Part shown: positions 10,101 to 47,829 of the stretch, piece by piece
How the letters are laid out: each line of letters starts with the position of its first letter
How positions within the stretch are numbered: position 1 is the first letter of the stretch
The notes under the pieces: generated by a model
Databases searched by the model: none
The model's input: the letters and a program-made list of their open reading frames with translations, nothing else
What the model was told of the DNA's origin: nothing
Assembly: GCA_001724265.1 (NCBI GenBank)
Contig: MEDY01000161.1
Span: 62,001-123,496, forward strand
Direction of reading: 5' to 3'
Length of the DNA: 61,496 bases
From: Rhizaria sp. SCN 62-66
Lineage: Eukaryota
Position numbers and translations under genes: made by a program

Positions 10101-11088
10101 CGTGCAGCTGGGCCTCATGGCGCAGGTTGCCGCTGGCATCGCGCCGCAGCAGCCGCCCGCCGGCCGCGCCGCGCAGTACCAATTCGGCGGCGACGGCTAC
10201 AGCTATGGTGCGGGCGACGGCGACGGCGATGGGACGACTCGGCCGCTGCAAGGACTGGAGGAGCTCAACCGGCGCGTAGACGAGGACCCCTCGGCGATCG
10301 CGCGCTTCTTGGCCAACAACGACCACATCGCGCACTACTCGACCACGATCTCGGCATTCACCGGCGTGCCCGTGCTGTTCCCTCACGCTCAGCTCTCGGC
10401 GCCCGAGCTTGTTCCCGGCGCACGCTCCGCCGCTCACGGTCATCACGGCGGCCATGGCGGCGGCGGGCTCATGATGCAGACGGCGACTGCGACCGCGGAG
10501 CAGGCGGCCGTCAAGGCGCAGATGCAGCGTCCGCTGCTCTTCGACGACTTCCGTCGCATCTTTGACGGCGTGCAAAAGCAGGTGTACGAACTCATGGTGC
10601 ACTCGGCCTTCTGGCGCTTCAAGCGCTCTGCACTCTTTGACCGCTTCCTGGAGGGCGTCAACGAAGGGCTCGTCGCGCGCCGCGTGCGTGGGGGCGAGAA
10701 CACAGTCACCACGCCCCGCAACGCCGCTGCGGCCGCCGCGCTTGCCGCGGGCGCTGCCACGGCGGCCGCGCTTGGCGGCGGCTCCGGCCCCAGCTCTGTC
10801 TCAGGCTCCGGCTCCGGCCCGGGCGCTGGCGCGGGTGGCGCCGCGGCCGCGCTCTCCAGCATGGGCAGCAGCAACGCAAACCTGGTCGCGATGACCACCG
10901 GCGGTCCCGTGCTGACAGCGAATGAGCGCAGCGTGAGCCGCGCGTCGTCGATGCTTAACATGGGCGGCGGCGCCGTGCTGTCTCCTCCGTCGACGATGCG
11001 CTCCGCGAACACGGGGCTTGGTAACGGGCTCGGCGGGGGCCGAACTGGGTCGAGCAACTCGCTCTACATCGAAATGACGCAGATGTAA
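4198..11088 (+). CDS. Protein with three cyclic-nucleotide-binding (CNB) domains and a C-terminal RGS domain, ~2197 aa; exons 4198-4248, 4402-4485, 4630-11088
   Basis: Start MSCCSGRSLC; GT..AG introns keep the frame. CNB motifs: YRQGDIIFLEGE..HYLTRGSV; IFNEGD..MYVVAKG..FGEIAL..PRTAT; and VPAGTYIQRKG..YFGEGSLL. RGS motifs: LFKQFLMREYSSENVDFW and FDGVQKQVYELM..FWRFKRS. Ends in TAA. Confidence 0.88.
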
Positions 11089-11637
11089 TTAATTCAATGA
11101 GATGTATTTTTTTGTTAATTTTTGTTGTATTTCATTTTACACCCTTTTAAACATCTATGTAAAACAACCTCACTGCGAACTTTTTCAGTGCGCGGGATTA
11201 AGTAATGTTCTGTTTTCGTCGTTTTTGCGTTCATATTTGTTGATGTTGTTGTAGTCTCATCGTACAACGGTGGCTGCAGCAGCGTTGCAATGAGCGTGAT
11301 GTAAATTTGTCTGAATCAAGCCACTATTTTGTCGTCATTTGATCGCACTGTGACAATTTTTTTCCTTACTGTCTCAAAGTGAAGATGGACCTGGTAACAT
11401 AGTTGTTGATTACATGATTCCCGATTCATTTTTATCTGCGTTTGTCGATTCAGCTTGCCATATTTAATAGTTACATGTCCCCTTAATTACTGTCTTGGAA
11501 ATCCGGTCTTGTTGGCTCTTGTTTTTTACCGTCCATGCGGCGGCTTTAGTTTTTGTCGTTGCAAAGAATTTACATTAACGTTCGATAAAAGCATACAGAT
11601 ACTTGCAGATATTAACAGAGAAATACTTGACACAAAG

Positions 11638-14600
11638 TCATTCCTTTTTCGCATTCGTTGCAACTCCTTTAGTCCCGTCCAAATGAACGTAGTACAGAGG
11701 CAGCTTCTTGCCATTTTCAATGTCATCCGCTGTCACACCCTCCTCACCTTTGTTGATTTGCTACTTCGTCAAAGGCTTCTCCTGTGTAATTTCTTGCTTA
11801 ACGTAGGCATGTGTCGACATGATTACAATATCGACGTCGATCTCGTCACCCTTCGGCAATCCCAGTGTAATCCCCAACAAACGCTTGAACTCTTGAACCT
11901 TTTTGTAAACGCGCCCAGGGAAAAAAGAATGCATATTGCCGATTGTGAATTGGATTAGAGCGAGGCGGGGCTTCTTGATTCTCTCACCAGGGATAGGCTC
12001 CTTGATAAACCCATGGGGATGATCAATAAAGTATGAGTCAAAGTCAGGATGAGTTGGGGACAATGCATCAAGACGCCAGGTTAAACGCGCTAGAGCAGAG
12101 TGACCTGCGTCCTCACGTACATCACCGGAAAAAGATCGAAGGGAGCACAGCGAGTCTGCAACAAGACGATATGGTGTGTCGTCACCATCGAAAGTTGCCA
12201 CGTTGACGTTGCGTTGCTGATGCTTCTTTGGATAGCGGCGCAAGTACGACATATCGATAGGAGGACGAGTAACTTCGCCGTAGGCGTCCCGAGGTACGTA
12301 CTGCTCCACATGTGCCATCTGAAGCAACATAAAGACATCCCCCTTGGGACGATTTGGAAGCAAAAACATAAGATCGAGCAGGTTGCCAGAGTATCCAAAC
12401 GAGCAAAGGCGGTCAAATAAAGCCGTCGCAGCCTCATCGCTTGTCCATTCAAGGCCACAGTTACTGAGATATTTGACATAAACAAGCACTTTTGCAGTCA
12501 TCTTCTCGATGTCATGCTTAGTTGTTGTTATCTTGCACTTTTTGATCCACTGCGGAAGCGCCGTCTCGGGTTTTGGCATACTGTGATCAGCCCTGCTCGT
12601 AACGATGTAGTGTGAATTCATGAAAAAAATACCATCACCTGAATACATTTTGTCCGCTAAACCCTCCCGAAAACAAACATACCGTAGCTTGTCGAAAACG
12701 TGTTGGTCAACACGGTTAATCAGGCGCTCCAAAGCTTGTTCTGCTCCCAGGAAAGTGGAAACTCCATATGCAGGGTTTTCCGCATTACTGGCATGTTCAG
12801 CTTTCAAGGCTACATGAAAGCTCCCAGCGAACAATTTGACAAGTTTATCAACTTTGGGTAAATCTGCCAAACGCTTCTTGCCTAAGAGGCGAAGTCCTTC
12901 GTCGATCTCTTCATATGTCCACGCATATGACCATAGATCAATAACATTTCCGTCCTTAGGAAAGTCTTCAACACCCTTGCTGATGTTCCTATAATGTCGT
13001 ACATCAGGAGATGTTGCAATTACACTTGTCGCAATATAGCTCTCATGGTAAAGAGGCAGAATATCACCCTCATTGGGATCAAAGAGGTACACAGTGTTCT
13101 GCTTGCGTAACCATCTCTTAGCATCGTCTGGCTTCAGCGTCATCACCGTGTCGCTGTTGTGCGCGTACAGATAGACCCCGTCGCCTGCATTATGACAAAG
13201 TACGTCCATCCCGAGCTCAAAACGTGCGACGTACCAAAGCAAGTTAAGCATCACAGTCTTGCCAGTACCAGGCGGGCCGCGAACTAAACATGTGTTCGCA
13301 AGCCCGTACTATTTTGCCCGACGTGCGCACAGCTGAGACAACAGAAGATTGTACAAATTAGTATGCGACTTGCGCAGCATCAATAAAGAAAGACCCTGGT
13401 TACCAGGAAGAAATTTGCCACCAAAAGGAAAGCTCGCTTTGGTATTGGGTTTGTCAAGAAGCATTGGAGCGGCGAGAGTATGGAAGAGATCAGACTCAAC
13501 CTCGTCCCATTTTATTGAAGCATGGGCTGCAAGGAACGCAGTGAAATTGGCTTGGATGCCAGCACCAGCCATCTTCATTGCGTCACCCAAGGAAGGCATA
13601 TACCTCCGGAGCTTGTTTTCCACTTCTGCAACATGAATCGCCGCTAGCTCCAGCTGAATCTGTGCCGCCTTCTTGTTTGCGGGATGCTCGTTTAAGTGCA
13701 TCTTTAGCTGTAGGTGATCGCGCGCAGCTTGAGCTGACATTAGGTCACGCTCGATAGAAGCGACCTCAAGCTTTTGAAATACGACGCCGCGGTTCGCAAT
13801 CGCATTCTCGACTGTGCGTTCAGCCGTCGCCAACCTAGACGCGGCATTACTGAGCTTAGAATCATGTGCGACCTCGTCTCTGTCTTCGGGTGACACAGCA
13901 TTTTGGGCTTGATTCGCGACGTTATAAGCTCCACGGGCCTCCTCGCAATCGACTCGAGCAATTGCAATATCAAAGTCAGCAGACTTCAGGTTGAACTCAG
14001 CTTCAGCAACATGATACTCGGCTGTGGTCTAGTTATAGGTAGCTTTAGCTCGCGACAACAATTGTTCAGTGTCAGGAGAGAAGAGAGCCGCAACGTCGTT
14101 TGGTGCCTTCGCGGAAACGATCTGAGCACGACGCTTTGCCTCCGTAGCGTCAGCCATCACCGCCGCCGCCTCCTTGACTGCAGCTTTAAGCTCATCCATC
14201 TGCTGCTTAGCCTCTTCCTTCGCCAACTCGGCCTCTTCCTTCGCCAACGCAGCCTTAGCTATATCGAGATTAGCTTGAGCAACTGCCACTTTTCGCTCAG
14301 CATTCGCGGTCTAAGCAGCAACGCGGTCGCGTTCAACTTCCGTGGCGGGGGGTGTTGACGTCATAACAAGCGTGGAATCAGCCGCATCGAGCAACTTTTG
14401 ATAGTGTGTAACAAGTAACCACCGCCTCTCGATTATCCTTTTGGCAGACGCAATACCTGACTGATACCGCGCGCGATAATCCCCAGCGATGCAAGCCAGC
14501 GCGGGAAGGACCACCGAGGGAGCAAGGAGGTCCGCCATGGGAAGGGGCTTGGAGTCGAGGAGAGTAGGGGGGGTTAGAGCAGAGGAAACGCCGACGGCGA

Positions 14601-14781
14601 CAGCGGACGCCCGACCGTCAGCGGTGCGAAGGGTGTCGACCGAGCCAAAATGGGGGCTACTAGGGACGGCGGAGCAGCTGGAACTTGCAAGCGAAGATGC
14701 GCAGGACATGTGTGCGGCAAGGCCTAGCCGTTCATTATCAGACGACTGCAGCTCAGCGGAGAGCGGCCTTGAGGGTCTCAT
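11638..14781 (-). CDS. Crinkler/RHS-type effector-like protein (coiled-coil + P-loop NTPase + REase-like C-terminus), ~1047 aa, with four in-frame TAG codons; start uncertain (frame open to 15087)
   Basis: Four track ORFs (14311-15087, 14029-14289, 13309-13896, 11761-13254) share one frame and are separated only by single TAGs. Motifs: Walker A GPPGTGKT at 13278-13255, Walker-B-like VYLFD, ATSPD..Y, WTYEEI, then PTHPDFD..LIQFTIGNMH resembling a CR-REase. The frame continues past the last TAG to TGA at 11638-11640. Confidence 0.75.
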
Positions 14782-15505
14782 TGTGACGAGCGGTGCCAAG
14801 GAACCTTCTGGAAAGTTTGTGAATAAAAAGGGAAGCAGGAGCGTAGCTGTGGGATATGACGTAAAAAAAATTAGGTATGAAACTAATAAGTCTATGATGT
14901 CAGTCGTCACGTTTGTCAATCTAGCGTTGCCGTAGTCCACTACATGCACTATTCGATGACGGCTCCGACATGAGATCACTTGTGGGGCCTGCGGACCCGA
15001 ACCAGCGAGCGAGAAGTTAGGCCGGTTTTGACCGACGGACAGGACTGTGAGCGACTGTGGTGACCATGTGAGCAACTGCTGGCTCATACGTTTACGAGGA
15101 GGTTAGCACAGCAGATTCTACGCGATAGCTGAATGCAGGAGAAGAAATATCACGAATTTACGTGGCCGCATATATGCGGATTTGTGCATGTACTTCTATT
15201 CCCCTATTCGCAAAGTCCTGAGGCAAACATGTCGTCTGCTTCTGCCCTCAGGGGCATGAGTAAGGCCCACTCGTGGCTGATTCCGACCAAGACAAATACG
15301 CACTTAGTGATCGCTACAGGGGGTATTATTAAGCGTCATAGTGTATTTAGTGCATATAACCAGAATAGCTATATTTCTCTTCCTAACTTCATTTTTATCA
15401 CATCTAACTCCTGCCCTCTCTGTCAACTCTCTTTGGACCCTCCACATTGCTCTTCCTAAAAGGTCATGGCGTTCCCTGCAGACTGCAATGAGTGCGCACA
15501 AAACC

Positions 15506-16000
15506 TCACTTGCGACGTAGAGACTTGTTCAGTGCCTCTTTGAGCTCCGCGTCAGTGATGCCGAGCATCTTGCTGAACCCCTTGATCACGAAGTGCGCCG
15601 GCATGGACTTGAACGCGAAGAGCATCGCCTGCATGCGCGACATCATCTTGGCGGCCGAAACTCCCTCGCGGCGAACATCGACTCTGCCCACGTCATTCAA
15701 GCAGCCCGCTAGTGTGCAGAGAAAGTCATGTTGGCGCAGCCGAGCGCGATATGACTTGAGGACGGTGAGGTCGAGTGGCCAGAGCAGGGACGTCCCGTGG
15801 GCAGGAACGTAAAGTAGCGTCACGTCGTTGTGATAACACAACTTGCGGAACAACGCTCTGAGGTGGCTGCGAGCGAAGTCGCAGACGAGCACATGGTACA
15901 GTTCTTGTAGCGGCCCACAAGCGTTGCGTCGCGCAGGAGCTGCACGTGCTCAGTGAATGACTCGCCGGTCGACATGGAGCTGCTGTTCACCTGAACAATT
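15506..16000 (-). mobile_element. Decayed pogo/Tigger-like DDE_1 transposase fragment
   Basis: LVCDFARSH..LLYVPAHGTSLLWPLDLTVLKSYR matches the DDE_1 pattern (LxxDxxxxH..P.xxTSxLQPLD). An upstream piece, NSSSMSTGESFTEHVQLL, lies in another frame (frameshift near 15900). No TIRs recognised. Confidence 0.65.
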
Positions 16001-16009
16001 ACGGCAAGT

Positions 16010-16620
16010 AAATTGCCGGAGCAAGGGGTCGAAGGCGGCGCTAAGGGCAAAGTCTGCAGCGTCTTCTTCACTACCTGGCGTAAAAACGCAATACAGGGCA
16101 TCGTACGCCGCAGTGCAAATGTCATCATCGATATCCTGCTAGGAAATGTCATCATCGATATCCTGCTAGGAAATGTCGTCATCGATATCCTGCGTGCCGC
16201 CCGCGTGGCGCTCGAGCGCAGCGCGCAGCACGGGCACGAAGCCAGAGACGAGTGAATACGGCACGGGCGGGGTGCACATCTGACAGAGCGTGGCAATTGC
16301 TTAGAACAACATCGTTTGACACTCCAACGTGACAGACATTTTTGTTCTTGCTTTTTTTGCTGAGAGTCCTGCGACAGCTGAACTGAGTAAGCGAGCAGTT
16401 TGGTTAGCGCGGCATGCCTGGTGGGGGCATCAAGTGCCGAGGATGAAGCAATCTCATTAATGAGTTTTAGTAGACGAAGCGAAAGTTGGTTATTCTGGCC
16501 TGCAAGAAAGCACATGCACAGGTTCCCGATTGTGTCGCTCCCAACAAGCACGGCACACCCAGCTTCGACGCTGAAGTTGCCCCCCTGGTGCGAGATTTGC
16601 TCAAACATCGCGACAACCAG
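16010..16620 (-). pseudogene. Possible degraded ARM/HEAT-like helical-repeat coding fragments
   Basis: Minus-strand pieces GFVPVLRAALERHAG..DDDICTAAYDALYCV and QLSLRLLKLINEIA..TRHAALTKLL look helical-repeat-like. They lie in different frames with an intervening TAA. Confidence 0.3.
16117..16193. repeat. 27-bp tandem repeat, ~2.9 copies (AAATGTCATCATCGATATCCTGCTAGG)
   Basis: Units start at 16117, 16144 and 16171; the third is truncated and has one substitution. Confidence 0.95.
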
Positions 16621-17459
16621 TTCAAGCCGCTCAGTAAAGTCTTGATCGCCCGTCAGGTTAAGAAATGCATTCAGTATACCAACAACGTTGGCTTCAGCCA
16701 GTGGGGCGACGTCAAAGACCTTCCGGACGATATTCCTGAGTTTACGGAGATCATCAAGATTAGTCGAGAGTTAGCTAACTGGAGCCAATGCGGCGTAATC
16801 CGTTGCAGCCACTTGTCATGGATGGGTTTCTCATCTTGATAATTGTAATGATGAATTCGAATCATTGGTCCGAATGCTTAAAAGGCCTGAATGACAGGTT
16901 TACAAGCCTTGGTAAGGTCAACAACAACACTAACGAGTCAGGAACATTCGTGGAATCACAGGAAATCACGACCACAAAGACGTTCAGAGAGCATACATGT
17001 GTGTTGTGTGTTTCCAAGATTTGATATCAACAACAGTTACACAAGTAATATAAACTGTATATCGTCATCTTCTTCTATATTATAAACTAACGCCCGTTTC
17101 ACAATGAATACGCGACATGGTTGAAGTGGAAAAAGCAGGGTTTACACGGTTTTGATTTCGACCACAAACTAGTAATAGTAAAGAGGAAGAAGAAAATAAT
17201 GTATGAACAGGATGCAACGGCTGTCCATACTCTTGGTTAGACCAGAGGGCGAGCCGTTTCTCCAAACTTCAGAGAGCTCTCGAGAGACATAGACATCGTC
17301 AAACGGAACTCTGATAGGATATGCGCAATCAACATTATTTTTTTAATTCTTTTATTAGTTTGTAATCTCAAGCAACTCCGGTTTATGCCATTAATTTCCT
17401 TCCTTTAGAGACCCCCAACAGAAGACAAGCAACAGGGTTGCAGACCGATCCTTTCCGAG

Positions 17460-20129
17460 ATGCTTGCCAATCCGCCCCAGGCTTCAACGGGTGCTGACCT
17501 GGCGTTTCCGCAGTCTCAACGTCCGCCATCTATGACCCTTAAGGTCCGTTGCTTTTTTCTCTTTCGCTCTAGGCTATATTCCATCTTTCATTGCTTTCAA
17601 CTGCTTGCTCGCTGCCATCGATCCCTCACGGGCATCTCCCTTGCACCACCATTCCCCATCACTATTTTTCCTGTTTAGGTTCACTGCCGCGAGATGCACA
17701 CGACGCTGCGCGTTGGCGGTGGCGAGCAGAACTTCAAATGGCTTGCCTTTGCGGTGCGCAACCTGTACGCGCAGCGGCACCCTGCGTATGATGTGGAGCA
17801 GTTCACTCCCGTGCTCGTCTGCGACAGCGAGCGTCGCCCTCTGTTCCCGCAATCAACAATCTGCGAGTGCGTCACCGACGGCGACGACGTCTTTGTTGAT
17901 CTTATTGGTCCTACTGCGTCGCTCAACGACGCAAACCGCGCGCGCGAGCGCAGTCTCTGGGAGCAGTATGCGCACAACCCTCCGTCGCACTTCAGCTCCA
18001 CGACGTTCTTCTTCGACGCCTCGGGCATGAGCGGGCTGCAGGGAGAGACCGTGGGTATTTTCGGCAACTTTAATGCTTGGTCCGTCCCAATCCCCATGCG
18101 CCCCATCGACAAGCACGTCTTCGAGCTCACGTTCGAGCTCCCCGTCGGCGCAGAGATCTGCTTCAAGTTCGTCCTCAACGACAAGCACGTCACTTCCACG
18201 CACTACCCCTTGATCCTGGACGAGAACGGTGTGCAGATGAACTACGTGCGCGTTAAGCTCCCGACCATTCCTTTGCTGGAGCCCGCGCAGAACGACCCCA
18301 CGCTGCTCGTCCCCGCGCCCGCGCTCACCGCCAACTCGTCCCGCATCGCGCGCGCCGCCGCCGTGAGCGCCGCCGCGGCGCTGCCGCCAGGGCTGGGCCC
18401 GCAGGCGCTGGCGCAGCTTGCCGTGTCCGCGCCCGACGTTGCGGCCGCGTTGCGCGGGCTCCCGCACAATGTCGACGCCGCGCCCGCCGTCGCCTTGGGC
18501 GTCGGCCTGCACCTCTCCTCCAAGGACTGGGGCGCCGCGGCGCACGCGGCCGTGGCTGAGCGCATCACGCGCAAGCCCGCATTCGCGCGCGCCGCCGCCG
18601 CGGTGCCCGCCAAGACGCTGTCGGTGCGCGTGACGGGCACGTTCGAGGGCGTGCAGCGGCTGAGCCTGGACATGCAGCGCCGACTGCTCGACTCGGACTG
18701 GACCAGCATTAACTGCCGCGACGTCGCGCGCGCGCCCGAGGAGCGCGAGGCTATCAAAGCCGTGCTGTGGGCGCACTCGGAGGAGCTGCGCCTGGCGTTC
18801 CGCTCCTACAGCTCGCTCGCGCCCGACTCGGACATCTCGCAGCTGTCCATCGTCACCTTCGCGCACGTCATGCACCTCTGCGGTGTCACGGACCCGCGCA
18901 TCTGCGCCGCCCGCTTGGAGCGCGTTGTAAACCCTGCGCTGATCGAGGAGGAGGAGACCCTGGCCGCCGCGGCCGCCGCGCGCCCGGGCGCCGTGCCGCT
19001 GCAGTCCCGCACGCTCGTCTCCGTGCGCCCCACCAAGGGCGACCCGTTCCATCCTGACACCCGCTTCGACCGCGCGGGCTTCTATTCGGCCATCATCCGC
19101 CTCGCCGCTGTCCAGCGCCCCGCGCTGCCGCCCTCGCAGGCGCTCGAAAGCTTCCTCACCGAGAACGTACTGCCCAACATCCTCCGCGCGGCCGCGGCGG
19201 CGCCCGCCAGCAACAGCGCCGCCGCGGCCGCCGCGGCCGCCGCCGCCGCTGCGGCTGCGGCAGCTGCGACAGGCGCCGCGGGCGCTGCGGCTGCGCCGGA
19301 GACCGACGTCTCACAGCGGATGCTGTCGCCTAAGGTGCAGAAGGTGTTTGCGCAGAACGCGCAGCGCCTGTGGTCGCTGTTCTCGCGCTTCGCCACCGTG
19401 CGCGAGCGTGGCGAAAGCAAGGGCACCGCCGCGCGCACCATCTCGTCCCGCGAGTACGAGGCCATCCTTCACGTACGTTTTGATGCAAGTTCACGCAAAC
19501 GTCAAATCAGCGTCATTGTCTTTTCACTCCTTTAGATCATATTTATTTTCTTCTTTTGTGTTCTCATCTTGCATTTGCATTTTCGATTTTTTTTTTTTTT
19601 TAAATATTTATAGGAATATAAGCTGTGCGACCAGTACCTCTCCCGCCGCCAGGCGCTGACGGCCTTCGCCCAGTCGGCCCGCGCTGCTGCCGCCGCCGCT
19701 GCCGCTGCTGCTGCGGGTGCCGCTGCGACGGCCGCCGCTACTGCCGCTGCGGCGACCCCCGGCGGCGTCACCGTGCCTGTGGCTGGTGCAGACCCCCAGT
19801 CGCTGACCACGCGCCCCACGCTCGCCACCGCCGCGGCCGCCAACGCCATCGCCGCTGCTGCCGCGTCCGCCGCGGCTGCCGCTGCCGACGCCGCCGCGAT
19901 GGCCTTCGCGGGCGGCCCCGCTGTGGCGTCCGCGGCCTCGGTCGCCGGCATGGACCTGAACCTCGAGGTGACGTATCCCGAGTTCCTTGAGGTCGTTGCC
20001 CGGTTCAGCGAGGCGCGCTTCCAGGGACCCAACCCGGCGCCGACGTCGCGCGCACACCTAGACTTGGCCGATAAGATCGAGCTCGCGCTGCAGCGCATGT
20101 TCCCCACCTCAGGCAGCCACGACATGTGA
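17460..20129 (+). CDS. Protein with an N-terminal ubiquitin-like region, a CBM48/AMPK-beta-like glycogen-binding domain and EF-hand-like C-terminal helices, ~797 aa; exons 17460-17543, 17679-19472, 19614-20129
   Basis: Phase-0 GT..AG introns. ETVGIFGNFNAWSVPIPM..FELTFELPVG..FKFVLND is CBM48-like. LNLEVTYPEFLEVVARF is EF-hand-like. Ends in TGA. Confidence 0.75.
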
Positions 20130-22629: not shown

Positions 22630-24791
22630 ATGTTGTCAAGGACCTCGAACAAACTTGCAGGGAGCTCTGCTTCCCTTATTTCTCATGCAATTCGGAACAT
22701 GTCTCGCTGCACTACTGGGCTTGTTTCCAGCGCCTCTGCCATTGCGCACACAAGCTCTGCTACTCGTTGCATGAGCACCACTGCTGTGCGCAACCCGAAG
22801 TACTCCACTGTCAACAAGGACGATATCGCTTTCTTTCAGTCTGTCCTTGGCGCCGACAATGTCCTCACCGATAAGGATGACATCGCGGTACGTATCCACA
22901 TGTATATCACCCCGTGCCTGCAGCTCCTTCAGCAAAATCAAATCTACACGCCATACTTTCCATTCGCACGCACGACAATTGAGCTAACTTCCGGATATAT
23001 TGTTGCCCCACATTAAAACTGTGATAATATGTGTTGAATCGTATCTTTTAGCCTTACAACAAGGAGTGGATGAACAAGTGGACTGGCAACGCACCCGTTG
23101 TGCTGCGCCCTGACACGACTGAGCAGGTCTCCAAGCTTCTGGCTCACTGCAACTCGCGCAGCATCGCTGTGGTTCCCCAGGGTGGCAACACCGGTCTTGT
23201 CGGCGGCTCTATCCCCGTCTTTGATGAAGTTGTGCTCTCGCTCTCGCGCATGAACCGCCCCGTCTCCTTCGATGAAGTGCAGGTACGTATCATAGTCTCC
23301 GACAAGAATCTTTACGAAGGAACTCCTCGCGTATTAATCGAAGATATGTCATCAGACGTTTGTTTCTGCTTTTGACCTGTTACTTTTTACGATTATGCAC
23401 GTCGTAATATTTTTCGTGTTTGTTGTTTGTACATGTACCTTCTTTGAACCTCGCTCAGGGCATCGCGACTGTCGAGGCGGGCATGATTCTCGAGAACCTT
23501 GACTCCTGGGCCGCGAGCAAGGGATTCACCGCGCCTCTTGACCTCGGCGCGAAGGGCACGTGCCAGATCGGCGGCAACGTCTCCACCCACGCCGGCGGGC
23601 TGCGCTTCGTGCGTTACGGCTCTCTGCACGGCACCGTGCTGGGTCTCGAAGCTGTGCTTGCGGACGGGCGCATCATCGACGTGCTGACGTCGCTGCGCAA
23701 AGACAACACCGGCTACGACCTTAAGCAGCTCTTTATTGGCAGCGAGGGCACTCTCGGCGTCATCACGAAGGTCTCCATTCTCTGCCCCGCCAAGCCCAAG
23801 GCCGTTGACGTACGTCACTTATTCATGTCAATGCTGATCTCATTTTGATAACGGGTAGCATGATAACGGTAATTTTGCATGCCTCATTACACGCAAAGTT
23901 TTTGCGATGTGATGAATTTTTGTCAACATCTCACGCAATCATGACTATTTGTTTTGCTCTCGTGATATTTTATCACGGCTTCATGTTCAGGTGTTGTACC
24001 TGGGTATGCAGTCGTACGAGCGCGTGATTGAAGTCATGCGCATGGCCCGCGAGCACCTTCAGGAGATCATTTCGGCGACCGAGTTCACGGACTCGCTCGC
24101 GCTGCAGCTCGTCCAGAAGCACATCCCCGGCGCCAAGTCGCCTCTCGAGGCTTCAATTGCTGATGGAGCCGCGACTGCGCACAAGTTCTACATGCTGATT
24201 GAGACCGCGGGCGGGTCACGCGAGCACAACCGCGCCAAGATCGAGTCCTTCCTGGAGGCGCTGTTCGCCAAGTACGGCGATGAAGTCGACGGCACGATGG
24301 CCGAGAGCGAGTCACAGGCCAAGGGGCTGTGGAAGCTGCGTGAGGGCGTACCCGAGTCCGCGGGCAAGGAGGGCTACGTGTACAAGTACGACATCTCGCT
24401 GCCCGTGGCGCAGATGTACGAGTTTGTCGAGAAGACGCGCGACCGCCTGCAGGGGCTCGATGCCCTCTCGATGGGTTACGGTCACCTGGGCGACGGCAAC
24501 CTGCACCTCAACATCGTGACGCCGCGGAAGAGCGACGAAGTGCTCGCGCGCATCGAGCCGTGGCTGTTCCAGGAGCTCAAGGCCGTGCGCGGCTCTGTCT
24601 CGGCCGAGCACGGGCTGGGCCAGGCCAAGAACAGGTTCATGGCATACTCCAAGACCGATGAGAGCATTGCGCTGATGCACCAGATCCGCGCCCTGATGGA
24701 CCCCAAGGGCATTCTCAACCCCTACAAGGTGACGTCGGACGACGGCTACGAGGGCCTTGAGGGCAAGACTTTCCCCCCCACCTCGCAGTGA
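22630..24791 (+). CDS. D2HGDH: Mitochondrial D-2-hydroxyglutarate dehydrogenase (FAD-linked; DLD2-like), ~546 aa; exons 22630-22887, 23052-23282, 23459-23809, 23991-24791
   Basis: Motifs [86 protein letters not shown]. Presequence-like N-terminus. Three GTACGT introns. Confidence 0.95.
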
Positions 24792-28981: not shown

Positions 28982-31900
28982 ATGTTTCGTCTGCGCACTC
29001 TCTCGCGCGGCTTTTCATTCCGCGCCGCGCTTTATGCACCCCCGCGCAGCCTGTTTTCTTCATACCGTGGTCGCCGTGACCCTTTCGACCCTGACTTCCC
29101 AACTACCCACGGTCACGGCCACAGCCACGCTTACGACGCTGACAGCGCTCACAATTCCTCTACTCAGTGGTCCGGCGAGTTTGCCGCCCCGCGCCGCGCC
29201 ACCCGCGCCCGCACTGAGCGCATACGGTACGCCGCGAAGCTCTCGGACAGCGACGAGGCGTTGCTGGAGCTAGCCGACGCTCTCGGCAGCGCCGGCGCCG
29301 CCCGCTCCGCGCGCGCCCGCCTCGGCCCTGCTCCCCAGTCCGCCGCCCGCGGCTCCTCGGCCTCCAGTGGTGCGGCGGAGGCGTGCGTGGACGTGGGCGC
29401 GGCGCCGCGGTACTGGGACAGCCTGCGCCGGCCCGCCTCGGCCGCGCCGGAGCAGGACCTGCAGACGCTCCTGGGCGGCGCCTCGCCTTACGCCGCCGCG
29501 CGCGCCAACAGCGCGTCGTCTGCGACCCCCGCGCTGGCCTCGGGGCCGGGCGCGGGGCTGGGCGCGCGGCGGGCCGCGGAGGCGCGGCTGGGCGCGGCGG
29601 CGTTAAAGCTGCTTCCGCGCGCGGAGCGGGCCAGACTCGAGGCCGAGTTCGCGATGGGGCTGCTGACCGAGGCGGAGCTGTACGAGGCCGCGGCAGACAC
29701 GGCCGCCGTGCTGGGGCTGCTCAAGGCCGACGGCGACGACGCGTACACGGCCTTTGCGACTGCGAACGCGGCCCACGGTCGCTCTGCCCACGGTCGCTCT
29801 CATGGCCACGGCAAGGGGGGCCCCGGCAAGGTGGGCGCAAAGGACTACGCGACGCACATTAACAACGCGCGCTGGGGTTCCGAGCTCCACCGCGACGACG
29901 GCGGCGACGGCGACAATTACGGCAGCGGCGACTCCAGCTCGCGCGCAAGTGGGCAGGACGACGCGGCGCTCGCGCTGCTCCTCGCGCGCGCCCGCGGCCA
30001 GAGCGCGCGAGGCCGCTCCAGCGCGGGCACTGGCGCGGGCACTGGCGCGGGCGGCAGCGCCAGCGGCTCCAGCGCGGGCGACGAGGCGGGCCGCTTCACG
30101 GCGTCCCAGTTTGGGCACCTGCTCTCGCTGGGCTACAGCGTGGCCGAGGTCGGCCAGCTCGAGACGCACATTGTCGCGGGGACGCGCGCCCGTGGGGGCG
30201 GCGGCGGCCACCTGATGGACCGCGACGGCGTCTTCGCGGCCGCCGTGGCGGGTGCGGCGGACGAGGAGGGCGAGCGCGCGCGCTCTCGTCTGGGCCGCGA
30301 CCGCTCGCACTACGCGGCGAGCACCTCAGCCGGCGGCGGCGGCGGCGCTGGCTCCGGCCCGCGGTCGAGTCTGAACCCCGGGTTTGACCCCGCGGCGGCG
30401 GCGCAGCACGACCGCGCGGCCGCGGCGGACTGGGCCGAGGCGGAGGCGGAGGCCGCGGCGGAGGCGACGCTGGCGGCGATGACCGACGCCGCGCGCGGGC
30501 TCGGGCTGGGCGCGCGCGAGCAGCGCCGCCTGCGCCGCGAGGCCGAGGCCATTCTGGAGCACCGGCGCGCGGAGCGGTGGCGGCAGCGCGCGCAGGCCGA
30601 CCGCGAGCACGAGGCGATGCTCCGGCAGCAGCAGCGGCAGCAACAGGCCTCCGCTGCAACCAACGTCGACGCGGACGCCAGCGGCCCCGACTCTGGCCCT
30701 GGCTCTGGCTCTGGCTCTGGCTCTAACTCTGGCTACTCCTCGGTCAAGAGCGGGCCGGGCGCGGACGGTCGCGAGGTGCGGTTGGCGACACTGACGGTGC
30801 ACGATGCTGAGACGGGCGAGCCTATCGCCGTGGAGCGCCCCGACCGCGTCACGCGCGCCGCCCACGCCCACGCTCACGCGGCCGGCTACGACCACCTCGG
30901 CGGCGGCGGCGGCGCGCAGCGCGGCGGACACGGCGCGCGCGGCGCGCGGGGAGCGGACTGGAGCGCCGCTGCCGCCGCGAGGGCGGGTGCCTGCGCCGGC
31001 CCGGTGACCGAGGCCGTGATTGTCGAGGCGGTCGTCGTCGACCGCAGCGCCGCGCACGCTGCTGCGGGAGCCGCGCACGGCGCCGACGTCAACAGCGAGT
31101 GGGCCGCCGCGGCCGCGCGCGTGGCCGCACTGCGCGCCTCGCGCCCGGGCCGCTTCGCCGCCACCACCGCGCAGACCCAGGCTGAGGCTTCGGCCACTGG
31201 CGCGGGTGCGGGCGCGGGCGCTGGCGCTGGTGCTGCGAGGCGTGTTGTGTCATCGCGGCTGCTGAGCAACCCTATAATGCGCACCACGCACTCGTTCGCT
31301 CACGCTGCCACACACCACGCCTCTCCGTCTTACTACAACACCGGTGCGCGTGCGTACTCGACTATGCTCAGCTCTCCCATCAGCCCCGCCGCCTACCACG
31401 GCTGCTCGCACACCCGCGCGGTGACCGTGTACGCGAGCGCGGGCTTCTCCTCGAAGCGGCAGCGCGATGCCGCCCAGCGCTGGCAGCAGACTCTGCTCTC
31501 CAAGCTCGCCGACTCCAACGGCGCCGACGCCAGCAGCGCGGACACCGCTGGCGATGTCGGCGCCGATTCGTCGTCTTCGATGACTGTGAGCAGCCTGGAC
31601 GTCGCGGACCTCCGCAAGGCCGCGCGCCGCACGCCGACCCCCGCGCCCAAGCCCAAGAAGGAGCCCGTGGCGGCGACCGCGAACACGTTTGGCAACGGCA
31701 ACACCAACCGGCGCGTGGCGCAGAACAGTCATGCCGCTGCCGCGGCCGCGTACGAGGCCGAGGAGGCCGCCATCGTGGCAGCCGCGATCGCCGCGGCCGA
31801 GGCCGACGACGCTGCCGCGGCCGCTACGGCGGCTTCGTCTGTCCGCGCGAGCGCCAGGCACGTCGCCGTCACGCACGCGGGTGATATTGACGCTGACGCT

Positions 31901-33007
31901 GACGGCGACGCCGACGGCGACGCGTACATGTCACGGCTGATGTCGGCGCTCGACGACGGGCTCCAGGAGGAGCAGCAGTCGCTACGTTCCGCCGCGCGCG
32001 CGGCCTCGGCCGCGCTGCGCGCCGCGGAAACGGCGTCCGCGCTTGCCGCCGCCAACAGCAACGCCGCTGAGGACGACGACGAAGGCTTGCTGGACGAGAT
32101 CGAGAGCGACTACGACTCCGAGTGGGAATCCGACCTCGACACAGAGTACTACGATGATGACCACAGCGACCACGATGTCGCCGCGGGCACTGGCTCTGCT
32201 GGCGCTAGCGCAAGCGCGGGCGCGACTGTGGGCGCGGACGCCAACGTTGCTCTCCGGCCCGGTGGGCCCAGTCCCGGCGGGCGCGTCAAGGGCCCCGTCG
32301 AGTACGTGGTGACGGAGCTGGACGGCGAGGATGGGCTGGGCCTGACGCTGATCAAGACAGACGTGGACGGCAAGGTCGGCTTCGTCAAGACGCGCTTCCG
32401 CACCCGCGCGCGCGACGTTGTGGCGCAGTCGGGCGGGCAGATCTACAAGACGCGCCTGCGCGACACGTACAAGCTGTTCGAGGACCAGGCGCGCGAGCGG
32501 CTCAGCGGCGGCGTGGTCGACGAGGTAATGGAGGAGCTGAACCAGAACCCCACGCCCAGCTTCGAGGAGCGCGTCATCGCGGCGCGCGGCGACGACAACC
32601 CTGTGCCGAAGATGACCGCGCGCGCGATTGGCGGCGAGGCCATCGCGAGCTTCGACCTGGACGAGAGCGACCTGGTCGAGCGCTTCATCCGCGGCTCCGG
32701 CCCCGGCGGACAGGCCGTCAACAAGACGCGCAACTGCGTTTTCCTGCAGCACACGCCCACGGGCACGATTGTCAAGTGCCACCAGACGCGCTCGCTGTTC
32801 GAGAACCGCATGATCGCGCGCAAGATCCTCAAGCGCAAGCTCGAAGACCTCAAGGTCGGCAAGGGCAGCTACCTGCAGCGCAAGGCCGCGCGCATCCGCA
32901 GGCGCAAGAACAGGCACCGCCGGCGCTACAACAGCAAGATGCGCGCTGCCGAGGAGGATGGACATGACGATGACGAGTCGTACGACGACCCGAGAAGCAA
33001 GCAGTGA
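28982..33007 (+). CDS. MTRFR: RF-1 (GGQ) domain protein of MTRFR/C12orf65 type with a ~1200-aa N-terminal extension, 1341 aa
   Basis: C-terminal LDESDLVERFIRGSGPGGQAVNKTRNCVFLQHTPTG.IVKCHQTRSL.ENR..AR followed by a basic tail; GGQ at 32705-32713. Arg-rich presequence-like start MFRLRTLSRGFSF. Confidence 0.8.
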   Translation: MFRLRTLSRGFSFRAALYAPPRSLFSSYRGRRDPFDPDFPTTHGHGHSHAYDADSAHNSSTQWSGEFAAPRRATRARTERIRYAAKLSDSDEALLELADALGSAGAARSARARLGPAPQSAARGSSASSGAAEACVDVGAAPRYWDSLRRPASAAPEQDLQTLLGGASPYAAARANSASSATPALASGPGAGLGARRAAEARLGAAALKLLPRAERARLEAEFAMGLLTEAELYEAAADTAAVLGLLKADGDDAYTAFATANAAHGRSAHGRSHGHGKGGPGKVGAKDYATHINNARWGSELHRDDGGDGDNYGSGDSSSRASGQDDAALALLLARARGQSARGRSSAGTGAGTGAGGSASGSSAGDEAGRFTASQFGHLLSLGYSVAEVGQLETHIVAGTRARGGGGGHLMDRDGVFAAAVAGAADEEGERARSRLGRDRSHYAASTSAGGGGGAGSGPRSSLNPGFDPAAAAQHDRAAAADWAEAEAEAAAEATLAAMTDAARGLGLGAREQRRLRREAEAILEHRRAERWRQRAQADREHEAMLRQQQRQQQASAATNVDADASGPDSGPGSGSGSGSNSGYSSVKSGPGADGREVRLATLTVHDAETGEPIAVERPDRVTRAAHAHAHAAGYDHLGGGGGAQRGGHGARGARGADWSAAAAARAGACAGPVTEAVIVEAVVVDRSAAHAAAGAAHGADVNSEWAAAAARVAALRASRPGRFAATTAQTQAEASATGAGAGAGAGAGAARRVVSSRLLSNPIMRTTHSFAHAATHHASPSYYNTGARAYSTMLSSPISPAAYHGCSHTRAVTVYASAGFSSKRQRDAAQRWQQTLLSKLADSNGADASSADTAGDVGADSSSSMTVSSLDVADLRKAARRTPTPAPKPKKEPVAATANTFGNGNTNRRVAQNSHAAAAAAYEAEEAAIVAAAIAAAEADDAAAAATAASSVRASARHVAVTHAGDIDADADGDADGDAYMSRLMSALDDGLQEEQQSLRSAARAASAALRAAETASALAAANSNAAEDDDEGLLDEIESDYDSEWESDLDTEYYDDDHSDHDVAAGTGSAGASASAGATVGADANVALRPGGPSPGGRVKGPVEYVVTELDGEDGLGLTLIKTDVDGKVGFVKTRFRTRARDVVAQSGGQIYKTRLRDTYKLFEDQARERLSGGVVDEVMEELNQNPTPSFEERVIAARGDDNPVPKMTARAIGGEAIASFDLDESDLVERFIRGSGPGGQAVNKTRNCVFLQHTPTGTIVKCHQTRSLFENRMIARKILKRKLEDLKVGKGSYLQRKAARIRRRKNRHRRRYNSKMRAAEEDGHDDDESYDDPRSKQ

Positions 33008-44114: not shown

Positions 44115-44522
44115 TAGTCTCCCCGAAAACCTATTGACAAAAGAAAAACAAGAGCAAAAAAAGATGAGCACGCAGTCTTATGCTATTCACACAGTGCTAA
44201 GGTCGTTTATGCCTACTCTCTTTAACGTCCTCACCAGCCGACTGACTGAGCAGCCCACTGACCGTGGGAGCAAGTCCGCCGTCGCCCACAGTCGCCATGT
44301 GGCGGTTGGCTTGATTGGCAACTGCACTCGAAGACGAGCTAAATTCAAGTCCAAACCATGCATGATAATTGTCCATAGGGTTAACGAAAAATAGGGTTAT
44401 ACATAAAGTAGTGAAAAAGCGGATTCCAATATTGTTTTTGTATTATAGACATATATATATCCAGTTAACGGCCCTTTCATGGGGTCCGAGTGCAAAGCAG
44501 GCGAAGTGTTTGTTCTTCCACT

Positions 44523-47123
44523 TCACTTCATGTCGAGCAGACGCTTGAACCAGTGCTGGTACTTGGGGTTGTCCTCCATGAGGCGCATAAGACCGATGCG
44601 GACCTTGCTGGCGACTTCCTCCTGCTTGCTGAGCTCGCCCGTGAGCTTCTCCTTGTCGACATTGACGCGGAGCTTGTTGCTCGCGGCGTCCTCGAACATC
44701 TTGCACTTCTTCTGCGCGACGAGGATGCTCTCCAGGTTCATCTGCTTCACAAAGAAAGCGTCGTCCAGCGCCGTGCGCAGCGTCGCGCGCGCGTCCTCGG
44801 CCTTGGTGTAGATGTCCTGCTGGCGGTGCAGCTCCTCGAGCAGGATTCCCGCCTGCTCCTCCTGGCGCGCGATCTCCAGCTCCACCTGCCGCGTCTCCTT
44901 GAGCTGCGCCTCAAGCTGGCCTTTGAGCGTCTGCGCCGCCTTGCGGATGCCCATTTGCGTCGCCTTCTCGGGGTCCTTGGCCTTGCCGGTGATGAGGTTG
45001 AGCGAGTTAAGCTGAATCGTCTCGCGCTTCGTGATGGCCAGCTCCATCTCCTGGATCATCTTCTCCTGCTGCCGCTGCAGCTGACCCAGCCGCAGCTTCA
45101 TGCGGTGGATCTCCTTCTTCATGCCCTGGATCTCTGGCTGCCCGTACTCGGGGTTCAGCGCCTCCTGCGTCTCGCGCGCGAGCTGGATCTTCTTCTCCCA
45201 GACCAGGATCTCCTTCTCGGCCTCGACGATCTGGTTCAGCACCTCATCCTTCTCCGCGCGCAGCTTCGCCACGGAGCCCTCGAGGTTGACGCTATCCAGC
45301 TCCAGGTCGCGCAGCCGCGCCCCAAATTCGCCCTCGGCGGTAAAGATGGCATTGCCGACGGTCGACTCCTGTGCGCAGTACTTGCTGATGAGCTCGTTGA
45401 CTTTGCGCATCGACGTGTGCAGGTGCCGCACTGCGCGCTGCAGGTCGCGCACGTCTTCGGTCTCGGCCTCGAGGCCCTGCCGCAGCCGCAGCCGCTTCTG
45501 CTGCAGCACGGTGTGGCGCGCGTCGAGCTCGCGCAGCGTGCCGCGCTCCTCCTCGGTGTCCTGGATCACGGCCACCAGCTCCGTCTGCGCCTTGACCCAC
45601 TGCTTCTGCTTCTCGCCGCTCTCACGTTCCAGACCAAGGATCTCCTTGCTCATCGAGTGGATCGTGGCTTCGAGCGGGCCCGTGTGCTCATCCTCGGCGC
45701 CCGCGTTGATCTTCTCCAGCTTCTTGTTGAGCCGCGCGATGTAGACCTGCTTCTTGTCGATCTTGTCATGGCGCTGGCGGATTTCGGCCTCGTACTTCTC
45801 GATCAGCTTGTCCTTGTTCTTAAGCTCTTCGTCGTAGGCCGTCAGCGTCGCGCGCAGCTCCTGGTTGTGCGCCTCGGTGTTGAGGGCGTCGACCTTAATG
45901 CGGGCCACCTCGTTCTCGATCTCGCCGATCTTGTTCTCCTTTTCGTGGATCTCCTTCTTGAGCTTCTGCGTCGCCTTGAACACGTTTTGCGCACTCTTCT
46001 CGATCGTCGTCTGCTTCCCGATGTTCTCCATGATCTGGTCATCCAGCCGCTGTTGCGCCTGCACCTGCTTCTCGTACTTGCTGTGCAGCTGATCGATATC
46101 GGCCTTAAGCTCGCGCTGCGCCGACAGCGCGTTGCGCAGCCGGGCGTCCGTCTCCGACAGCGCCGCGCGCAGCATGGCGTAACGCTCGCTGAGCCCGCGC
46201 CGTGTGGCGTCGAGCTGCTGCATCTGCGCGTCCAGGAAGCGGCACTCGGCCTCGGCGCGCGATACGAGCGCCTGCACTTTGTCGTTCTGCGCGCGCTGCT
46301 CTTCGGTGCGCGCGCGGAAGGCCCGCGCCGTGAGCTCGAGCGTGCGGAGCTTGTCCTGCAGCCCGTGCAGCGTGTCGCGCGCGGCCTGCAGCCCGGCGTC
46401 GCGGTTGCTCATCGCCGTGAGCGACGAGCGCCACTTCTGCATGTACTCGCGCTTCTCGGCCTCAATGAGGTCCAGCTCGGCCTGCGCCTCCTGCAGCGCC
46501 GCGCGCGCCTGCACCGTCTCCTCGCGCTGCGCGTCGGCCTGCGCCGAGTGCACGGCGGCCTGCTTCTGCAGCGTCTTAATCTGCGTCTGCAGCAGCGCGA
46601 TGCGCTCGTCCTGGCGCGCCTTGTCCAGCTCAAGCTTCTGCATGCTCTCCTCGGTGCCGTAGGCCGCGCGGCGCGTCACCATGATGTCAGACGCCAGGTT
46701 CGCGTTGTGCTCCTCGATCTGCCGCAGCATAAGCTTGACCTTGTCCAGCTCCTTCTGCGACTTCTCGCGGCGCGCCACAACGACGTCGCGCTCCTTGGAG
46801 AGCGTCTTGGCAACCTGCTCAGCCTCGGCGACCTGGCGCTCGCAAGCCTCGCGCTCCTGCACCACCGTCGTGAACTCCTCGTGCTTCGCCTCCAGACTCA
46901 TCTGCATCTTCGCCAGCGCCTGCTGGAAATTGTACAGCTCCACACCCTTCTCTTCGCGCTGCGCCTTGACGCGCTCCGCCGCGGCCGTGCGCTCGCGCAG
47001 CTCCAGGGTCACGCGTTCGTCGGCCTTAGTCAGCTGCGTGAACAGCGCGCGTTGGATGCGCTCCATCAGCGGGTGGTTGGGCGGCATCCAGCCGCCGGGC
47101 TCGCCACCTCCTTGATCAGCCAT
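44523..47123 (-). CDS. CCDC40: Axonemal 96-nm ruler protein CCDC40/FAP172, 866 aa, single exon
   Basis: PNHPLMERIQRAL, GVELYNFQQALA, ENE.ARIKVD, GPLEATI, ILVWEKKIQLARE, EIQGMKKEIHRMKLR..QL.RQQEKMIQEME.AITKRE; long coiled coil. Confidence 0.93.
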   Translation of the reverse strand: MADQGGGEPGGWMPPNHPLMERIQRALFTQLTKADERVTLELRERTAAAERVKAQREEKGVELYNFQQALAKMQMSLEAKHEEFTTVVQEREACERQVAEAEQVAKTLSKERDVVVARREKSQKELDKVKLMLRQIEEHNANLASDIMVTRRAAYGTEESMQKLELDKARQDERIALLQTQIKTLQKQAAVHSAQADAQREETVQARAALQEAQAELDLIEAEKREYMQKWRSSLTAMSNRDAGLQAARDTLHGLQDKLRTLELTARAFRARTEEQRAQNDKVQALVSRAEAECRFLDAQMQQLDATRRGLSERYAMLRAALSETDARLRNALSAQRELKADIDQLHSKYEKQVQAQQRLDDQIMENIGKQTTIEKSAQNVFKATQKLKKEIHEKENKIGEIENEVARIKVDALNTEAHNQELRATLTAYDEELKNKDKLIEKYEAEIRQRHDKIDKKQVYIARLNKKLEKINAGAEDEHTGPLEATIHSMSKEILGLERESGEKQKQWVKAQTELVAVIQDTEEERGTLRELDARHTVLQQKRLRLRQGLEAETEDVRDLQRAVRHLHTSMRKVNELISKYCAQESTVGNAIFTAEGEFGARLRDLELDSVNLEGSVAKLRAEKDEVLNQIVEAEKEILVWEKKIQLARETQEALNPEYGQPEIQGMKKEIHRMKLRLGQLQRQQEKMIQEMELAITKRETIQLNSLNLITGKAKDPEKATQMGIRKAAQTLKGQLEAQLKETRQVELEIARQEEQAGILLEELHRQQDIYTKAEDARATLRTALDDAFFVKQMNLESILVAQKKCKMFEDAASNKLRVNVDKEKLTGELSKQEEVASKVRIGLMRLMEDNPKYQHWFKRLLDMK

Positions 47124-47829
47124 ATTTACTACGTTCAGTAAGACTGTTCAAAACGCCCCTGCTTAAAGCGTCTCGGTTGTCGAGTGTTTAGAGGGGAGGT
47201 TAAGACCGAAAGGGGAAAGGGTATGTGGGGGTTGTGTGTTGTGTGGTGTCTTAGGAGAGCAAGGGAGTGGTTGAAGAGACAACAGTATATGATGTGAGTG
47301 AGTTTGCCTATGAAATGATGTCAAGTCGAGTCAAATGAACATCTTAGCGCGATACAGGCAGTGGTATGGATGCACAGCTTAGGACCTTGAACGGCTCCGA
47401 GTCGGGAGCAGCGGCACTCTGCTTCCCAGAGCTAAGGGGGTAGCTTTGAGGCATAAATGCCAGATTTAATTTTAATTTGATACGTGAATATACAATAAAA
47501 TAAAGCACGCCGCGAAATGACGGTCTCAGGGCCGTTTAGCAGACACGTTTTGGAAAGCGTTACTTCAAAGAGACGTTTTTTCTCGAGCCAAAGCAGGCGG
47601 GTCGAAAAAATCGAGCCAAATTGAATTTCAGCGAAAGCTCTTGCAAAAATGCCAATAACGCATTGAGACCAACATAAAACATAGTTATATTTATTGCTGT
47701 AATAGAAATCATACGCGCATACTGTTTTTTAAGTCAGTAACCGCGCGGCCTGCTTTCTGACTCCGCATGTTCTCATTGATTTCAGCTTGCTCGCTTGAGC
47801 TTGCCGTGACTTTTTACTGTTGGTGAAGT

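Follow-up and report, generated by a model that had tools for sequence, protein, structure and literature searches.

Nuclear genetic codes in which UAG alone has been reassigned are known from very few eukaryotes, and in these UAG is already used genome-wide. Such UAG-only changes have been reported for Iotanema spirale, where UAG is translated as glutamine, and for the rhizarian exLh, where it is translated as leucine; genuine terminators of these organisms were only UAA or UGA, with 56 and 15 cases in exLh (PMC5304391). UAG is the rarest leucine codon in exLh ribosomal protein genes and is missing from half of them; in the two organisms UAG is distributed over many conserved genes (384 in 71 genes) and located on hyperconserved leucine or glutamine positions (PMC5304391). 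Independent UAG-only changes to leucine or glutamine were also described for phyllopharyngean ciliates based on metagenome-derived genomes of uncultivated protists, with predicted suppressor transfer RNA (tRNA) genes, UAA kept as a stop codon and widespread sense use of UAG (PMC11687900). Regarding protein families, Crinkler-RHS-type (CR) proteins are described as having a conserved N-terminal header and variable C-termini, often featuring a P-loop nucleoside triphosphatase (NTPase) and a restriction-endonuclease-fold domain (PMC5289972). The present study deals with a gene on the minus strand of a 61,496-nt stretch of contig MEDY01000161.1 (positions 62,001 to 123,496 of that contig; referred to as the window), originating from an assembly designated Rhizaria sp. 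SCN 62-66. Its reading frame of 1047 codons encodes a putative P-loop NTPase and is interrupted by four TAG codons. The Crinkler-like protein described in PMC12957317 is a different one, an ADP-ribosyltransferase, and has no bearing on this gene.

The interpretation favored here, with a probability of roughly 0.6, is translation of UAG in this unsampled eukaryote, with glutamine as a possible meaning, the gene being an intact representative of a P-loop NTPase family that is rare and multicopy. Accordingly understood, the four TAG codons would not be lesions, and the ribosome would most likely insert an amino acid at UAG and continue to the terminal TGA. Decoding may be accomplished by a tRNA with the anticodon CUA, or by near-cognate tRNAs in combination with an eRF1 that reads UAG poorly. 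So far, TAG would be common just in this family, which is weakly codon-adapted and of low guanine-plus-cytosine (GC) content at third codon positions (GC3), and would be avoided in codon-optimized core genes. A tentative and clearly less probable extension is that the lineage is at an early stage of UAG codon capture, or that UAG decoding is family-specific. UAG would then be gone from terminators and core genes, and its return as a sense codon would be restricted to a multicopy NTPase family of low GC3 and selfish appearance, in which it is gained and lost like any other amino-acid replacement.

Stop codons in the gene and its family

The minus strand of the window from 14781 to 11638 represents a single frame of 1047 codons followed by TGA (11638..11640), and relatives align with its translation (P0001, with X at the TAG positions) from end to end. 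In-frame stops are limited to four TAG codons; neither TAA nor TGA nor any frameshift was observed. TAG codon 157 (14311..14313, minus strand, as for all features of the gene) lies within the conserved motif EVERDRVAA-X-TANAERK, where relatives feature ACC or ACG (Thr) or AAG (Lys), and codon 251 (14029..14031) is located in the coiled-coil part, where the local alignment is poor and relatives show AAG or ACT. At codon 491 (13309..13311), relatives possess CAC (His), CGC or GGC, and P0012 has Gln. Codon 1007 (11761..11763) is part of a variable linker, and the tail following it, GKKLPLYYVHLD, is conserved with P0014 (GKKLPFFYINMN). Upstream of the gene, the frame stays open to 15102 and contains an in-frame ATG at 15087; similarity to relatives begins at the ATG at 14781.

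The openness of this frame is far beyond chance. In the gene region, which has a GC content of 50%, the other two same-strand frames contain 27 and 76 TAA and TGA codons vs. none in the gene frame, which is therefore a coding frame now or was one until very recently. With TAG read through, no other window frame of GC below 0.58 is as long. The next longest TAG-broken frame of this kind (217 codons, 22636-23289, minus strand) was rejected, as its translation is junk. The GC3 value of the gene is 0.52 and thus resembles that of intergenic DNA, whereas neighboring host genes, i.e., the GC-rich genes surrounding it, reach 0.79–0.89.

A preceding sequence-only reading had described a frame of about 1050 codons broken by four TAGs only, with spacings of 282, 720 and 1548 nt and with one TAG just ahead of an intact Walker A motif. 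These statements were borne out, the motif GPPGTGKT following 11 codons after the third TAG, and the linker peptides quoted there (TANAERK, TTAEYHVAEAEFNLK, YGLANTCLVRGPPGTGKT and QINKGEEG...LPLYYVHLDG...KKE) are all present in the translation. The same reading regarded four TAGs out of four lesions as the strongest evidence for recoding, and this argument did not hold. TAG accounts for half (0.50) of the single-step nonsense changes possible in the gene, resulting in p ~0.06 for four of four, and the pattern in the window copy by itself is weak and not significant. Its conclusion that TAG is tolerated or recoded, rather than a product of decay, is nevertheless supported by the comparison of related copies, which it had itself suggested as a check. 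Repeat-induced point mutation was considered and rejected, as the gene gave negative values for both indices of this process (TpA/ApT 0.71; (CA+TG)/(AC+GT) 1.29). In a polyA RNA run (X12), contigs were found on 13604-13878 and 14670-14931 at a depth of 3–4; depth is 0 in the bins 11403 to 13412 and no X12 contig shown spans a TAG, and transcription of the whole gene is thus neither shown nor excluded.

Relatives of the gene are scarce. An exhaustive HMMER search revealed 25 among 1.84 billion representatives, and the seven that were looked up by cluster originate from metagenome or run assemblies. Public runs containing the stretch are labelled as bioreactor or wastewater metagenomes. The family is rare, multicopy and fast-evolving, and all its known members derive from uncultured GC-rich eukaryotes, either in bioreactor or wastewater runs or in further metagenome assemblies. 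Ten loci encoding relatives (L001 to L010) were obtained in a single scan of metagenome contigs, from assemblies with three contig-name prefixes. These correspond to eight distinct loci, since L005 duplicates L004, and L007 covers part of the same sequence as L006, the difference being a 21-nt repeat unit; one of the loci, L010, is a 125-codon fragment. The window itself contains no paralogue of the gene, and a search of 2.9 million viral contigs turned up no relative. Among close copies, the ratio of nonsynonymous to synonymous substitution rates (dN/dS) is 0.61–0.87 over the full aligned length (dS ~0.2–0.3). Seven of the eight distinct loci, as well as the window copy, are free of frameshifts.

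Nine distinct copies were compared over their main spans (5857 codons), namely the window copy, L001, L002, L003, L004, L006, L008, L009 and L010; this de-duplicated count omits L005 and L007 as a whole, the TAG at L004:3691 and the TAG at L008:1093. In frame, 20 TAG codons but no TAA and no TGA were counted, as opposed to 202 TAA and 384 TGA codons in the other two frames. The eight copies other than that of the window contribute 16 of these TAG codons. Decay of paralogues should, as the sequence-only reading had pointed out, yield all stop types as well as indels, and this prediction fails. Considering all tblastn-covered codons of the ten loci (6487 in total), 22 TAG, one TAA and one TGA were found. 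Both non-TAG stops (TAA at 1526 and TGA at 1798) belong to L007:1519-1941, which also carries a frameshift near 1520-1534 and is the only frameshifted copy. L007 is the one clearly decayed copy and represents an internal control for decay within the family.

Moreover, for two trios of close copies, the stops expected from neutral substitution on each branch were calculated and set against those observed. For L002, L003 and L004 (612 columns), 7.2 TAA, 2.4 TGA and 11.0 TAG were expected, and zero, zero and eight were observed; for L006, L008 and L009 (362 columns), expectations of 3.4, 1.9 and 5.3 were opposed by zero, zero and three observed codons, respectively. In both trios together, TAA and TGA were absent vs. 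14.9 expected (Poisson P ~3e-7), and TAG was observed 11 times vs. 16.3 expected. The resulting ratio of 0.67 for TAG matches the family dN/dS (0.6–0.87). Due to the missing TAA and TGA codons and this agreement, TAG appears to be handled as an ordinary replacement: selection in the family is shown to purge TAA, TGA and frameshifts, but to act on a new TAG no more strongly than on the average replacement of an amino acid.

Individual TAG positions add to these counts. Diverged copies share TAG in the same column in the pairs L001 and L003, L002 and L003, and L003 and L010. A variant contig of the window gene, represented in two public runs and differing at 15 of 282 letters, retains TAG 491 with synonymous changes in codons 490 and 492. 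The downstream flanks of L003 and of L004/L005 are 81–96% identical, and the copies therefore occupy one genomic place and diverged in situ; they differ at seven TAG codons. Paths into TAG are mixed, starting from CAG, TGG, AAG, GAG and TTG, so that no single mutational process accounts for them.

Host genes, the meaning of TAG and competing explanations

The window is eukaryotic and comprises long GC-rich genes encoding, e.g., a cNMP-binding/RGS protein, a GH47 mannosidase, a CwfJ-like protein, an ankyrin protein, the ribosomal protein uL30 and a protein kinase. Metagenomic relatives of the GH47 enzyme are 70–76% identical. Named homologues from plants, insects, slime moulds and a haptophyte reach 38–44%, and none exceeds 44% among the 120 best matches listed, which places the organism in an unsampled lineage. 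Terminal stops of 17 host genes (coding GC3 ~0.85) are 11 TGA and six TAA, with no TAG among them, and GC falls to 0.33–0.56 after each. One of these genes, orf53767, could instead belong to the following gene as an exon. TAG usually makes up 20–30% of terminators, and on that assumption its absence from 17 has a probability of ~0.002–0.02. Two further genes in the L010 flank end with TAA and TGA. The uL30 protein could be aligned with solved ribosomal chains to the last residue but one, followed by TAA; this comparison did not point to any particular lineage. Two open reading frames (ORFs) seeming to end in TAG stop inside introns, namely at 19473-19613 on the plus strand (GTACGT...TTTATAG) and at 1448-1583 on the minus strand (GTCCGT...CACAG). 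The true ends are a TGA at 20129 for the corresponding AMPK-CBM gene and a TGA at 820 for the protein kinase gene. Host introns are spliceosomal and ~136–190 nt in length.

A separate observation concerns the region downstream of the family gene in L003. At L003:4131-5015 (plus strand), a GC-rich, coiled-coil-like frame is coherent across TAGs at 4497 and 4554 (...REQEAQL-X-EKDARLQEQEARHQTQMQ-X-QEARLRA...), and is a candidate for a host-type gene containing TAG in frame, although Pfam gave no match for it.

Codons opposite TAG in relatives were inspected with respect to the suggestion that alternation with CAG or CAA would imply glutamine and alternation with TTG or CTG leucine. They are mixed, comprising CAG, AAG, GAG, TGG, TTG, CAC, GAT and others, and are mostly one-step neighbors of TAG; the check was hence carried out without settling either meaning. 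TAG positions are variable and mostly polar. In a similarity-weighted BLOSUM62 vote covering the 14 of 20 sites with a close neighbor, Q scored 13.9, E 9.8 and K 8.0, which makes glutamine a weak best guess. No common nucleotide context was recognized around 21 listed TAGs (+4 base: A 8, C 6, T 5, G 2). Furthermore, the 3′ untranslated regions (UTRs) of the window copy, L001 and L003/L004 showed no similarity by eye, and the window has no Rfam matches.

Several results weigh against translation of UAG in this organism. Among the 12,544 codons of the window's host genes, not a single in-frame TAG occurs, although the rarest sense codons are present 11–14 times, and only at an intron does a host frame in the window extend past a TAG. 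Compared to host genes, the gene is enriched 3.7- to 11.5-fold in other AT-rich rare codons, and by analogy with these codons, approximately 4–13 host TAGs would be expected; their absence is notable, not absurd. The 17 terminators without TAG constitute a small sample. Within the family, TAG reaches about one fifth of the number predicted from base composition (20 vs. 93.9). Relatives display various residues opposite TAG (Q, W, E/K, H, D, M/L, T), from which no single meaning emerges, and highly conserved columns are free of TAG. No tRNA gene of any kind, suppressors included, was detected in the window or in L001–L010. The window copy has no close relative in DNA, and its presumed status is extended from the family and from one variant contig. 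It also lacks the linker and intron present in L002 and L004, its codons 102 and 103 being joined directly at 14476, and could be rearranged, either by a deletion or as an intron-less copy.

Among the competing explanations, readthrough of UAG in this gene family only, with the codon still being a stop or forbidden in core genes, is regarded as unlikely, though less so than the others. It implies a dedicated mechanism, proposed to be a co-expressed suppressor tRNA or an mRNA feature recoding every UAG in the manner of the selenocysteine insertion sequence (SECIS) for UGA. The absence of TAG from the 12,544 host codons vs. ~3.4 per 1000 codons in the family agrees with such a mechanism, and the conserved 5′ region (300 nt of coding DNA together with ~200 nt in front of it, 78–83% nucleotide identity), in which the proportions of synonymous (pS) and nonsynonymous (pN) differences are about equal, could carry the signal. 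However, the 21 TAGs share no context, the 3′UTRs of the subfamilies show no similarity by eye, and family-only readthrough does not predict the lack of TAG terminators in 17 host genes. To our knowledge, with no literature search aimed at it, no family-specific UAG decoding mechanism of that kind is known in eukaryotes, which also counts against it. The view that the window copy and the TAG-containing family copies are ordinary pseudogenes, with only TAG occurring by chance or mutational bias, is improbable and, at the family level, strongly disfavored. It can draw on the value of p ~0.06 for the window copy alone, on the high dN/dS (0.6–0.87) combined with an intergenic-like GC3 of 0.52, and on the existence of dead copies such as L007 with its frameshift, TAA and TGA, and the fragment L010; the missing linker and intron cast doubt on the window copy in particular. 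It is countered by 20 TAG without any TAA or TGA in 5857 codons, by zero vs. 14.9 such stops in the trios and by the unframeshifted state of seven of eight distinct loci and of the window copy. TAA and TGA are plentiful in the other frames, and several mutation types lead into TAG.

A still smaller chance of being correct applies to the view that the copies came from a donor in which TAG is a sense codon, e.g., a virus, symbiont or other eukaryote, and were inserted into a GC-rich host, where they are not translated. The contrast between a GC3 of 0.52 and neighboring values of 0.79–0.89, seen in the window and also in L003, L004, L005 and L010, would fit a foreign origin, as would the rarity of the family with 25 members among 1.84 billion representatives. 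Against such an origin, the spliceosomal intron of L002 and L004 is of the same type as the host introns of the window, L003 and L004/L005 diverged in place and gained only TAG, and the 2.9 million viral contigs contain no relative. Least probable of all is correction of the TAGs at the mRNA level, e.g., from UAG to UGG by A-to-I editing or from UAG to CAG. A-to-I editing of UAG to UGG occurs in some filamentous fungi, and the nearest relatives indeed feature TGG at two TAG columns (105 and 265) and CAG at three (107, 401 and 1130). Most TAG columns, however, are without W or Q in close relatives, and U-to-C editing would rescue TAA and TGA too, yet both are absent.

Protein architecture, shared 5′ end and surrounding DNA

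The predicted product of the gene is a 1047-residue protein. It starts with a module rich in Ser and Ala, continues with a long coiled coil and a P-loop NTPase containing Walker A, and ends with an alpha/beta domain. The N-terminal module (residues 1–102, 14476..14781) shows 67–73% protein identity to L002 and L004. It is followed by a coiled-coil-like helical region (residues ~140–440, 13462..14364), which is rich in Ala, Glu, Lys and Gln, contains two of the four TAGs and has weak tropomyosin and flagellin-helix matches. Within the P-loop NTPase core (residues ~492–700, 12682..13308), the Walker A motif occupies residues 502–509 (13255..13278), with G502–K508 being invariant in a five-sequence alignment, and TVYLFDP (residues 563–569) resembles a Walker B motif. 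In the putative C-terminal alpha/beta domain (residues 828–1006, 11764..12300), near-invariant residues are R903, D905, H911, F914, D915, Y917, R939, Q944 and T946.

Structure prediction was of limited quality. The NTPase core is the sole confidently modeled part, with predicted local distance difference test (pLDDT) values of 73–89 over model residues 21–100. The model extending from the NTPase to the C-terminus is poor (pLDDT 55.8) and retrieved generic AAA+/STAND structural matches with E-values of 5e-4 or weaker and low template-modeling (TM) scores. For the C-terminal domain model (pLDDT 64.6), the best Z-score was 5.2, and the nuclease-fold chains of Exo5 (Z 3.9) and a Cas4-family protein (Z 3.5) ranged within noise. 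Foldseek returned nothing at E 0.001 or better for this model and no fold above noise, and a profile search of PDB sequences yielded no match under E 0.3.

Likewise, Pfam provided weak Walker-A-type AAA and STAND hits only. No match to Crinkler, RHS_N or RHSP (PF07999) was obtained at E up to 1 for the protein and 15 family members, and the header (residues 1–101) searched alone remained without a Pfam match up to E 0.01. Among the ESM Atlas feature look-alikes (scores 0.94, 0.88 and 0.87) are clusters with RHSP or Crinkler Pfam domains in 13–17% of their members. The CRN/RHS label assigned in the sequence-only reading therefore has these look-alikes as its sole basis and no Pfam confirmation, and is kept as a lead, membership not being confirmed.

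Treating the TAGs as stops leads to storage of the genes as fragments in databases. P0007 represents a 496-residue ORF of the gene, and P0002 and P0030 are fragments of relatives starting just after a TAG. P0008, P0030 and P0031, encoded on contigs of 81–203 kb, have a common end at ...QITAS, beyond which P0014 extends.

The 5′ end of the gene is more conserved than its body. A 5′UTR-like upstream stretch (14782..14979, minus strand) is conserved with L002 (83% nucleotide identity over 14979-14476) and L004 (78%), whereas the gene bodies are only ~35% alike at the protein level, in contrast to the N-terminal module and ~200 nt upstream. In the N-terminal module, pS and pN are nearly equal (0.147 vs. 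0.132 against L002). Based on this near-equality and the divergent bodies, the 5′ ends appear to have been homogenized, as recombination would do. A search with the N-terminal module resulted in two exon-1-like fragments only. In three DNA runs, the stretch 14619..16025 (unstranded), comprising the first ~54 codons, the upstream region and a repeated element, reached 10–40x single-copy depth. The gene body is at ~1–3x single-copy depth, as deduced from public contigs on 10800-16800, many of which are 90–95% alike. L002 and L004 possess a variable low-complexity linker and an intron (GTACGT...TTCTAAC...ATAG) after residue 102 (L002:982-1287 and L004:436-1005).

Further observations refer to variation among copies and populations. 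Comparing L006:1150-1200 with L007:80-150, i.e., the same locus in two assemblies, one extra in-frame 21-nt unit (GCGGAGCTCAAAGATGCTAAG) was noticed in the coiled-coil part. In L003 and L004, the frame remains open for 34 codons beyond the TAGs at 3205 and 3691, respectively, up to a shared TAA; the two extensions agree at 27 of 34 residues. From just before this TAA, 140 nt are 96% identical, as compared to ~85% in the coding region. Upstream of the window gene, positions 15351 and 16386 are directly connected in a contig of run X2; another population thus lacks 1034 bp of the window, representing an insertion polymorphism. Three tandem copies of a 27-nt unit, AAATGTCATCATCGATATCCTGCTAGG, are located at 16117-16197, two being identical and one 85% alike; apart from this tandem repeat, no terminal or inverted repeats were found around 10800-17700. 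A join from 10851 to 16193 in run X1, which would drop the whole block, has 20 letters on one side and cuts the neighboring gene; it was treated as an assembly join.

Elsewhere in the window, the plus-strand frame 28982-33007 encodes a protein of 1341 residues with an RF-1 (peptidyl-tRNA hydrolase, GGQ-type) domain at the C-terminus only (residues 1224–1320), which is an unusually great length for a carrier of this domain. At 44490-47147, both strands are open over ~870 codons of GC-rich, low-complexity sequence without Pfam match; by its base pattern (GC1 0.68, GC2 0.33, GC3 0.91), the minus strand looks like the real gene.

Significance and comparison with known systems

In the lineage analyzed here, UAG appears to have been removed from terminators and core genes, yet is freely accepted in one fast-evolving family. 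If this holds true, the lineage would provide a natural intermediate for testing how stop codons are captured, be it by way of an unassigned or an ambiguous stage or through decoding specific to a gene class. In practical terms, standard gene callers split the genes of this family at TAGs.

The following comparisons refer to the known systems as far as they are characterized in the sources cited at the outset. In contrast to CR proteins, the Pfam searches for Crinkler and RHS domains gave no match, a long coiled coil separates the header from the NTPase, a nuclease fold was not recovered in the model of residues 828–1006 and no link to a pathogen is known. Like CR proteins, however, the family is multicopy and combines a homogenized 5′ module with diverged bodies and a P-loop NTPase followed by an alpha/beta domain. 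The sense TAGs described here belong to one family within 61 kb, and neither the window nor L001–L010 yielded a suppressor tRNA, unlike the situation in phyllopharyngean ciliates. GC-rich genes with spliceosomal introns of ~136–190 nt are also unlike a ciliate macronuclear genome. Shared with these ciliates is a UAG-only pattern in an uncultivated eukaryote known from metagenomes. Compared to Iotanema and exLh, UAG is located in one gene family and at variable positions, is missing from 17 neighboring genes and occurs in a GC-rich genome. On the other hand, the locus resembles both organisms in that UAG is the sole interrupter of reading frames (20 of 20 in the family), terminates none of the 17 host genes and is used unevenly between gene classes.

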